The notes: generated by a model not told the origin, from the sequence alone. A stretch of DNA of 64,000 nucleotides from Escherichia coli (GCF_030013595.1 NZ_CP122768.1), one strand, 5' to 3'. Shown: positions 2,251 through 3,320, counted from the stretch's first letter. Numbers and translations: made by a program.

Positions 2251-2298
2251 TAGCACGTTCTTGCATATGACGTGGCTACGGGTTTCGAGACCGACCCG
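2251..2298. repeat. degenerate direct copy (~85%) of the pin 3' end plus its downstream hairpin
   Basis: Aligns base-by-base with 3272..3320; contains imperfect dyad GTAGCACG..CGTGGCTAC. Confidence 0.5.
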
Positions 2299-2472
2299 AT
2301 CATCAAACGAAACATAAAATTAGCTCACATTATGAGGAAAGGTATCTTTTTGCGCTATGTAAATTCAAAGGGTTAGCCTCATTTTCCCGATGGCTTTCTC
2401 AACACTACTAGTTGTGAGCCCTTGCAATGTTCATTAATATACGTCTCACAAATAATTCACAGATATTGCAAA

Positions 2473-3246
2473 ATGGATATTACTGAGTTTCCTTCTGGAG
2501 TAATTGAACACCTTGGCTGGTATGTATACCGATTGATTGATCCTAGGGACGGAAGCACCTTCTATGTAGGGAAAGGCAAAGGTAACCGCGTATTTGCCCA
2601 TATGCGCGGTGAAGTGGCAGCGGCTGATGATGACGAGTTACTGAGCAACAAGCTAAAGCAAATCAGAGAAATAAGATTAGCGGGACTTGAAGTTATCCAC
2701 GTCATCCATCGACACGGAATGACTGATGAAAAGACGGCGTACGAAGTTGAAGCAGCACTTATTGATGCCTACCCTGGGTTAACGAATATCATGAATGGTG
2801 CTGGCAGCAATGAATTCGGCGCCGCGCATGTCAAAGAGTTGATAGCAACATATCAACCCGAAACCATAACATTTCATCATAAAGCATTAATGATTTCCGT
2901 TAACAGAAGTGCAAAGGATTCAGAGCTTTATGATGCGGTTCGATTTAGCTGGCGCATTAATGTCTCTCGCGCCAGCCAAGCAGAAGTCATTCTTGCTACT
3001 GTAAGGGGGATCGTTCGAGGGGTTTTCATTGCTGATAAATGGCTCAAATCAACACGTGAAAATTTCCCTACGATGAAATACTGGGACGAAGATCCTGACT
3101 TTGAGGCAACACAAAGTTCTCGCTATGGTTTTGAAGGTCGAGAAGCCCCACCTGAAATAGCAAATCTTTATCTTGGAAAAAAAATACCAGATGAATTAAG
3201 AAAAAAAGGAGCTATGTCCCCGGTCCGTTACTCACCTAATTTTTGA
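2473..3246 (+). CDS. GIY-YIG nuclease family protein with ~140-aa C-terminal domain of unknown function
   Basis: N-terminus has GIY-YIG-type motifs (YVYRL ... [14 protein letters not shown] ... YEVEAALI); ATG at 2473, no obvious SD; moderate-to-low GC. Confidence 0.65.
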
Positions 3247-3271
3247 GTCTTTAAGTGATAAGCATAAACCG

Positions 3272-3320
3272 CAGCACGATCTTGCATACGACGTGCTACG
3301 GTTTCATTTATCTCCGACCG
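3272..3320. terminator. hairpin between convergent GIY-YIG gene and pin (likely bidirectional terminator); partner of repeat at 2251..2298
   Basis: Dyad AGCACG-13 nt-CGTGCT followed by GGTTTCATTT; overlaps last pin codons. Confidence 0.45.

Follow-up and report, generated by a model that had tools for sequence, protein, structure and literature searches.

The two imperfect direct repeats that flank a GIY-YIG endonuclease gene in an Escherichia coli prophage are two copies of one hairpin family, found in Escherichia lambdoid prophages where the tail-fibre/pin module meets the variable att-proximal ('b') region. The arrangement is an ordinary mosaic junction, that is, a cargo slot at a conserved module boundary where two family copies were brought together by phage-phage recombination. 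In the reading that we prefer, to which we assign a probability of roughly 60%, two phage end modules were fused and subsequently shuffled by homologous recombination, so that the repeats would be paralogues within one family and would owe nothing to duplication on insertion. Throughout the text, the window is the whole analysed stretch of 64,000 nt (one strand; E. coli GCF_030013595.1, NZ_CP122768.1), and coordinates are counted from its first letter (Table 1).

A repeat search of the window returned a direct repeat of 88% identity (2249-2274 versus 3270-3295), and by alignment the core comprised 37 and 35 nt (2249-2285 versus 3270-3304) with 32 of 37 matching columns (86.5%). The original prediction had drawn the repeats as 2251-2298 and 3272-3320 with about 85% identity; a direct repeat beyond chance does lie there, but its extent and identity were overstated, since these 48- and 49-nt segments were 74.5% identical on alignment. 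Their tails (2286-2298 versus 3305-3320) showed 53% identity, which is the chance level, with CCGACC as the sole common stretch. The downstream copy is located directly 3' of the pin stop codon (complement of the stop, 3304-3306) and is essentially non-coding; thus, of the earlier view that it consisted of the last pin codons and a hairpin, the hairpin after pin was confirmed and the codon part was not. The 25-nt repeat consensus, with up to three mismatches allowed, had two sites in the 64 kb, both of them the repeat copies (expected from shuffles, 0), and the local alignment score of the pair was 26, compared with 12.0 ± 1.9 (maximum, 23) in 500 shuffles. From the core and tail identities and the shuffle scores, the repeat is real, is shorter than claimed, and ends at the pin stop codon. 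The shortness and imperfection of the repeat, together with the chance-level tail, would suit a fortuitous similarity or two unrelated generic terminators; however, the probability of this is negligible, considering the absence of expected matches, the score above all 500 shuffles, the 13-nt loop conserved in both copies, the same Rfam hairpin matched by both, and their membership in one family with hundreds of aligned members. Chance similarity was accordingly excluded on the expected matches, the shuffle score and the family alignments. The upstream copy had been taken for an orphan and turned out to be the terminal hairpin of a complete element of ~100 nt, hereafter E (2186-2285). The conserved 5' block of E (GGAAATCATTCAATACTC...) is missing from the downstream copy, in which the homology begins 2 nt before the stem and covers the hairpin only.

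Table 1. Coordinates of the features around the pin-distal boundary in the window.
Feature	Position	Strand	Remarks
Element E, ~100-nt conserved lambdoid-prophage element	2186..2285	+	5' block (GGAAATCATTCAATACTCGCACTATCG) and terminal hairpin
Upstream repeat copy, hairpin of E	2249..2282	+	Arms CGTAGCACG / CGTG(G)CTACG, loop TTCTTGCATATGA; stem co-varies across the family
tRNA-Ser(CGA) (serU) attachment-core remnant, ~17 nt	2281..2297	+	Anticodon stem-loop in reverse complement (GGTTTCGAGACCGACC; tRNA, CCGGTTTTCGAGACCGGTCC)
PD-T4-3 leader	2298..2472	+	Travels with the gene in all contexts
PD-T4-3 / CMoRE, GIY-YIG type IV restriction endonuclease, 257 aa, cargo gene	2473..3246	+	Assigned with PADLOC, PDB and Pfam
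Downstream repeat copy, hairpin between convergent PD-T4-3 and pin, without the E 5' block	3266..3304		Minus-strand fold; in 79/79 PD-T4-3 loci
pin, pinE-type serine DNA invertase	3304..3858	-	Convergent with PD-T4-3
Pin-invertible tail-fibre segment	3913..5792		Inverted pix sites at 3913-3939 and 5773-5792

Both copies were predicted to fold into a hairpin with a 12-14-bp stem and a conserved loop, (T)TCTTGCATACGA; the stems are GC-rich and stable (-18.6 to -25 kcal/mol; z, -3.0 to -5.4). On the pin-sense (minus) strand, the stem of the downstream hairpin is fully paired (-23.6 kcal/mol, z = -5.4) and is followed by UUUAUGCUUAUC, and on the plus strand (PD-T4-3 sense) the fold has -18.6 kcal/mol and is followed by UUUCAUUUAU; the tail after the stem of the upstream copy is GGGUUUCGAG. 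The downstream copy is the resident predicted terminator at the pin end and would serve the convergent pin and PD-T4-3 genes. Note that a simple terminator scan assigned no terminator at the hairpins (their loop exceeds 8 nt and their U tracts are broken up), and that a scan of 1900-3950 with sigma-70 and terminator consensus sequences found nothing near E or PD-T4-3 on the plus strand. In Rfam, both hairpins matched on the minus strand the 3' terminal stem-loop of the Shigella sRNA CssrB (RF02799) with sub-threshold scores (32.4 bits for 3270-3326 and 19.6 bits for 2249-2300). The 3' terminal stem-loop of that family is equal to the present hairpin on the pin-sense strand; however, only the last ~45 positions of the model were matched (gathering score, 76), and the sRNA body is absent here. 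The 3' end of CssrB is probably formed by a copy of this hairpin of prophage origin.

Per-sequence folds of 84 E copies showed that the stem is kept through compensatory variants (CAGCAC/GTGCTG, CGGTAC/GTACCG and CAATCATGC/GCATGGTTG). RNAalifold did not recover the hairpin from the raw 84-sequence alignment because of indels in the 3' arm, and the structural support was therefore taken from the per-sequence folds instead. E copies contained no consistent ORF or start codon across the copies. Interpretation of E as an sRNA or a riboswitch was discarded, as Rfam gave only the sub-threshold match to the CssrB hairpin and RNAalifold gave no useful consensus. We also withdrew a 'chimeric hairpin' proof of crossover in the loop, which had been built on a C.A mismatch that the downstream copy shows when read on the plus strand: on the pin-sense strand this pair is G.U and the stem is perfect, so that the mismatch alone proves nothing, and the context-specific 3' arm described below remains as evidence. 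The commonest allele of the downstream hairpin (32 of the 79 PD-T4-3 loci) had a 4-nt duplication in the loop (GATCTTCTTGCATACGA versus GATCTTGCATACGA in the window).

Element E is nearly universal in E. coli. BLAST with 2170-2300 gave matches in 5383 of 5426 complete E. coli genomes (99%), at a median of 3 places per genome (maximum, 9). At least 120 loci were collected from IMG/VR with an 18-nt seed, which is invariant in the alignment by construction because it was used for retrieval. The 84 distinct copies that were aligned had a length of ~100-105 nt with the consensus CGTAAAATCGGTAACGGCTGGAAATCATTCAATACTCGCACTATCGAAAGTTCACCAGCCAACCGCAGCACGTTCTTGCATACGACGTGCTGCGGTTT, and the conservation dropped sharply right after the hairpin; weaker homology of the region to lambda and to the homologous prophage of strain CREC-591 (L007) reached back to ~2105. 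Of 100,044 species representatives searched for the exact 21-nt hairpin core, only those of Escherichia contained it, in addition to two MAG contigs. Nearly all lambdoid prophages of E. coli have the unit (~96-105 nt) at their variable end, beside cargo genes, where it normally adjoins pin (or tfa) directly. It is present in lambda/HK629, HK97, HK633, K-12 Qin (at the ydfJ end) and the ecpE(yagV)-ykgJ spacer of K-12. In HK97 it immediately follows the annotated sib site (order, int - att core - sib - E - tfa), in the lambda-like HK629 it is situated between ea31 and ea47, and in HK633 it comes directly after int; in these three phages it separates int/att/sib or b-region genes from tfa/pin. 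Out of 114 IMG/VR copies, 61 were preceded by a dinI-like gene and 6 by an HK633-type integrase gene. Like the lambda sib/tI retroregulator, E is positioned immediately past attP and has the orientation of int transcription, opposite to that of the tail genes, but its sequence differs and it is a separate hairpin downstream of sib.

The element has been met before as an attachment sequence. The GenBank record of HK633 (JQ086377) describes attP as 'similar to the non-coding region between ykgJ and yagV', and this feature overlaps the E match. Nakamura et al. (2021; PMC8112680) described a 96-bp sequence, attB-in-PP_2, at which lambda-like phages integrate into other prophages; this sequence and its flanks of 184 bp and 29 bp show homology to the ykgJ/ecpE spacer. 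The sum of these lengths (309 bp) is close to the 312-bp spacer, which would place the 96 bp where E lies. Alignment of E with the K-12-type spacer copies (L131 and L006) gave 82-83% identity over 89-90 nt, and through this common chromosomal homologue we infer that E corresponds to attB-in-PP_2. E and attB-in-PP_2/HK633 attP agree in homology, length, prophage-end position and association with cargo; however, E of the window serves only as a conserved boundary, and no prophage is integrated into it, the following segment being an integrase-less 1 kb whose left end is a serU att remnant. A literature search with E sequence strings found no papers. Considering the HK633 annotation and the description in PMC8112680, E is a known attachment sequence as well as a module boundary.

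In the K-12 ecpE-ykgJ spacer (L131, 1683-1994), a frameshifted dinI-like remnant was found just upstream of E (tblastn in two frames, E = 3e-6). A dinI-like gene precedes E in 61 of the 114 phage copies, and the chromosomal 'attB' therefore has the appearance of a fossilised end of a prophage; in PMC8112680, the spacer sequence is proposed to have gone the other way, from chromosome to phage. In strain 20 (L006), a spacer E (5013-5101, ecpE-ykgJ) and a prophage E (9701-9901) occur in direct orientation on one chromosome region, 4.7 kb apart, with ykgJ, yagU and an integrase fragment between them. In HK97 (L132, 3090-3260), ~14 nt of the pin 3' end are kept after E (tcatttatctcc..), and a fragment of an alternative inverted tfa C-terminus is kept before the real tfa; these pin and tfa fragments point to descent from a phage with a Pin-invertible tail-fibre segment.

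The gene between the repeats is, as judged from its protein sequence, the known anti-phage restriction enzyme PD-T4-3/CMoRE. The protein matched PADLOC PDLC04031 over its full length (residues 1-256, E = 2.2e-140), is near-identical to PDB 9U75 (E = 1e-172), and has an N-terminal LEM-3-like GIY-YIG domain (Pfam PF22945). CMoRE has been reported as a modification-dependent type IV endonuclease acting on 5hmC/ghmC DNA and protecting against T-even phages (PMC12923530). With respect to the enzyme described there and in PDB 9U75, the protein itself shows nothing different, and it is the genomic setting alone that is described here. The 956-bp gene block was present in 851 of 5426 complete E. coli genomes.

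We sorted 79 IMG/VR loci encoding PD-T4-3 by their left and right flanks. On the right, the hairpin was followed by pin in 59 loci, lambdoid tfa in 12, a 'CAACTCC' flank in 7 and another sequence in 1. On the left, 25 loci had an intact E, about 21 (21-22) had a degenerate E lacking the 5' arm, 25 had a 3' fragment of tRNA-Ser, and 8 were not evaluable or had other sequences; the 25 tRNA-type loci carried neither E nor the hairpin upstream of the gene. In 25 of 72 evaluable loci, hairpin sequence bounds the cassette at both ends. Left and right flank types were found in nearly all combinations, from which we conclude that the block has moved between contexts many times through exchange at E and at the hairpin. 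In the downstream hairpin, the 5' arm and the preceding sequence go with the cassette, and the distal loop and the 3' arm follow the local context; BLAST breakpoints were located at 2263/2279 and 3302/3304. One locus (L043, 1389-5230) had three family copies in the order E1 - 2.6 kb of other DNA - E2 (full) - serU remnant - PD-T4-3 - hairpin - pin, which looks like stacked prophage end modules.

The left end of the cassette retains the trace of another attachment site. The full tRNA-Ser fragment had 69-nt identity to an annotated tRNA-Ser, and because the anticodon is cga (ARAGORN) and the gene adjoins mtfA, the tRNA is serU. In the serU-context loci, the fragment borders host DNA (L153 and L149) or an integrase gene (L184; int - attP - PD-T4-3). 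The remnant of the window was colinear with serU and with the attR (L153, L149) and attP (L184) forms and continuous with the phage-side attP flank (alignment A6). In the same alignment, the hairpin of every E-type left junction was separated from the PD-T4-3 leader by a retained serU att core segment of 17-19 nt (TTTTCGAGACCGGTCC), with serU-derived TTTCGAGACCG(A/G)(C/T)CC after the hairpin in all of them. The junction lies at CTAC..GGTTT(T)C, which is common to the 3' arm of the pin-type E and the serU anticodon stem (an interrupted microhomology of ~10 nt), and three E variants have one and the same E-att junction point. Since an att core stands between the upstream hairpin and the gene, the gene came with the att-proximal end of another phage; the serU-context loci and the remnant in all E-type junctions make PD-T4-3 an att-proximal gene of serU-integrating phages. 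On comparison of these junctions, the E-contexts thus appear to be derived, having arisen by fusions in which most of the tRNA fragment gave way to E.

As had been proposed, the pin-distal region is a slot in which cargo is met repeatedly; homologous prophages have empty alleles, and varied cargo occurs. Empty sites with one repeat copy, which the original prediction anticipated, were found. The prophage of strain CREC-591, which shares pin (95%), YmfQ, baseplate J, gp46 and V genes with the window, has E adjoining the pin stop codon, one hairpin and no GIY-YIG gene; in a closer empty allele (L072), the upstream 5' arm of the window (AGTCGTAGCACG) is joined via the loop to the downstream 3' arm and the pin end. 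A 161-nt empty-junction query was covered by at least 80% in 302 of 5426 genomes, and tandem repeat pairs with no cargo between them, which the original prediction had listed as a refutation, did not occur among ~130 element copies. Other cargo was likewise found in the same slot: a phrog_1305 protein (in L099 and three more), a 216-aa protein whose gene precedes a truncated E and the hairpin (L216), and mcrA in K-12 e14. The e14 end is similar to that of the window in its pin/tail-fibre module and in having a type IV restriction enzyme between att and pin; however, its homology to the window extends no further than the pin stop codon, its pin end lacks both E and the hairpin, and mcrA is co-directional with pin. 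The e14 slot gene (L215) and that of the window (2473-3246) are unrelated and in opposite orientation. A second cargo slot lies to the left of E and holds Avs2, FRG with ea59/ea31-like genes (L007), or a type II R-M system beside a degenerate E. In the window, the first cargo gene to the left of E (1-1233, minus strand) has a 1-nt indel that truncates the product after 141 aa; its counterpart is intact in strain 20 (488 aa), with weak PADLOC matches to LmuA (E = 0.002) and WYL (E = 0.004). Between this pseudogene and E, a 139-aa protein with an N-terminal signal-peptide-like segment is encoded (1549-1968, minus strand), for which no match was found in PADLOC, PHROG or NCBIfam.

The repeats had been interpreted as the footprint of an inserted GIY-YIG cassette. 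This interpretation was not supported, because the two copies are alike as members of one conserved hairpin/element family with ~3 copies per genome in 99% of E. coli genomes; this largely amounts to the genome-wide family that the original prediction had named as contrary evidence. Moreover, 25 of the 79 occupied loci had no upstream copy, and a serU remnant stands beside the hairpin. If the repeats were an attL/attR pair, occupied sites should have two copies, but besides those 25 loci a further 21-22 had a degenerate one. According to the preferred reading, that is, the fusion of two end modules, PD-T4-3 would first have been the last gene of serU-integrating phages (int - attP(tRNA-Ser fragment) - PD-T4-3 - hairpin - pin/tfa). 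Such an end module would then have been joined to the E-bearing b-region of another phage, giving the arrangement of the window; the left junction would have formed at the CTAC..GGTTT(T)C homology, leaving ~17 nt of the att core, and the right junction in the hairpin or pin by homologous exchange. Recombination inside E and inside the hairpin would later have carried the block from one context to another. The observations in this scheme are family membership, empty sites, the att remnant and context shuffling; how the events followed one another, and which enzymes made the left junction, is inferred.

Several other routes were weighed against this fusion. In one, a whole serU-type phage would have used its own integrase to enter a pseudo-att site at the E|pin border of a resident prophage, after which homologous recombination between the two pin/tail modules would have deleted all but att remnant - PD-T4-3 - hairpin. 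Such a route would produce an identical left junction. The E-att junction lies inside the 18-nt anticodon stem-loop segment, within which the normal crossover must fall judging from attP/attR polymorphisms, integration of one prophage into another is on record for such elements (PMC8112680), and the tandem end modules of L043 would fit; however, the reciprocal junction (tRNA fragment and pin end, CTACTCCGGTTT(T)CATTTATCTCC) had 0 exact matches in IMG/VR, and the pseudo-att resembles the true core only in its left half and the TTT run, so that we regard this route as rather unlikely. A Campbell-type insertion of a circular PD-T4-3 cassette, whose single hairpin recombined with the E hairpin beside pin to leave attL/attR-like hybrids, either site-specifically by an HK633-type integrase using E as att or by short-homology recombination, would agree with the role of E as an attachment sequence (HK633 annotation, PMC8112680), with the loci bounded by hairpins on both sides, with the cassette-constant 5' arm and context-specific 3' arm of the downstream hairpin in three contexts, and with the L072 allele, which resembles an exact empty site. 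We nevertheless judge it unlikely: the loci devoid of any upstream copy, the absence of the 60-nt E 5' block from the downstream copy, and the lack of a recombinase gene in the cassette all oppose it, the longest identity of HK633 attP/attB to the K-12 site is in the 5' block and not in the hairpin, and a hairpin-by-hairpin exchange leaves unexplained the serU remnant, the conserved left end of the cassette, which lies outside the hairpin. It is highly doubtful that the E hairpin is the crossover core of a tyrosine integrase, with the arms as inverted core sites and the loop as the overlap, and that single defence genes move as integrase-less mini-cassettes between E sites; if this were the case, the integrase would act in trans from co-resident prophages, and E-bearing prophage ends would be an integron-like capture platform for anti-phage genes. 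Target-site duplication by a transposable element carrying the gene, or homing by its product, would be suggested by the occurrence of GIY-YIG domains in homing endonucleases and by the direct repeats at the gene, but is exceedingly improbable in view of the characterised type IV restriction enzyme, the absence of a transposase and of terminal inverted repeats, the 35-nt imperfect duplication, which is unlike a transposition footprint, and the loss of the upstream copy in a third of the loci. Both the homing-endonuclease and the transposon readings were ruled out by the PADLOC and PDB identification.

Morons and mosaicism at module boundaries are established concepts for lambdoid phages (Hendrix/Juhala). 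The present block conforms to them as a self-contained gene with its own leader and predicted terminator between conserved modules, its flanks shuffled among phages at short conserved sequences; unlike the general case, the boundary is a specific structured element of ~100 nt that is also an att site, and the PD-T4-3 moron carries a fossil tRNA att core. A gene followed by an imperfect inverted repeat and arrayed beside an att-like site also recalls integron attC cassettes, but with no IntI, no attC architecture and the upstream site missing in a third of the loci, this is a resemblance only. E itself (as attB-in-PP_2/HK633 attP), PD-T4-3/CMoRE, the e14-like pin with its invertible segment and lambdoid mosaicism were already known; the additions made here are the assignment of the repeats to the hairpins of the E family, the fossil serU att core, the near-universal occurrence of E, and the two cargo slots delimited by E. 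Direct repeats flanking prophage cargo thus need not be an insertion scar, and may be, as here, two copies of a ubiquitous boundary element. E and its hairpin provide a compact marker for the two cargo slots at the lambdoid tail-fibre end, and the slots so marked house defence genes (PD-T4-3/CMoRE, McrA, Avs2, R-M and ea59/ea31-like pairs). The fossil serU att core records the passage of an att-proximal defence gene between phages with different integration sites.

Two further observations concern the pin side of the window. The pix sites (20 nt, 95% complementary; one arm exactly TTCTCCCAAACCAACGTTTATGAAAA) bound a segment of ~1.85 kb with alternative tail-fibre tips and tfa genes. In addition, a 26-nt inverted repeat (2987-3012 versus 3863-3888) has one arm within PD-T4-3 and the other immediately before the start of pin, within its leader; 22 of its 26 positions were complementary, compared with 18-20 reached in 20 shuffles, which is slightly beyond chance.
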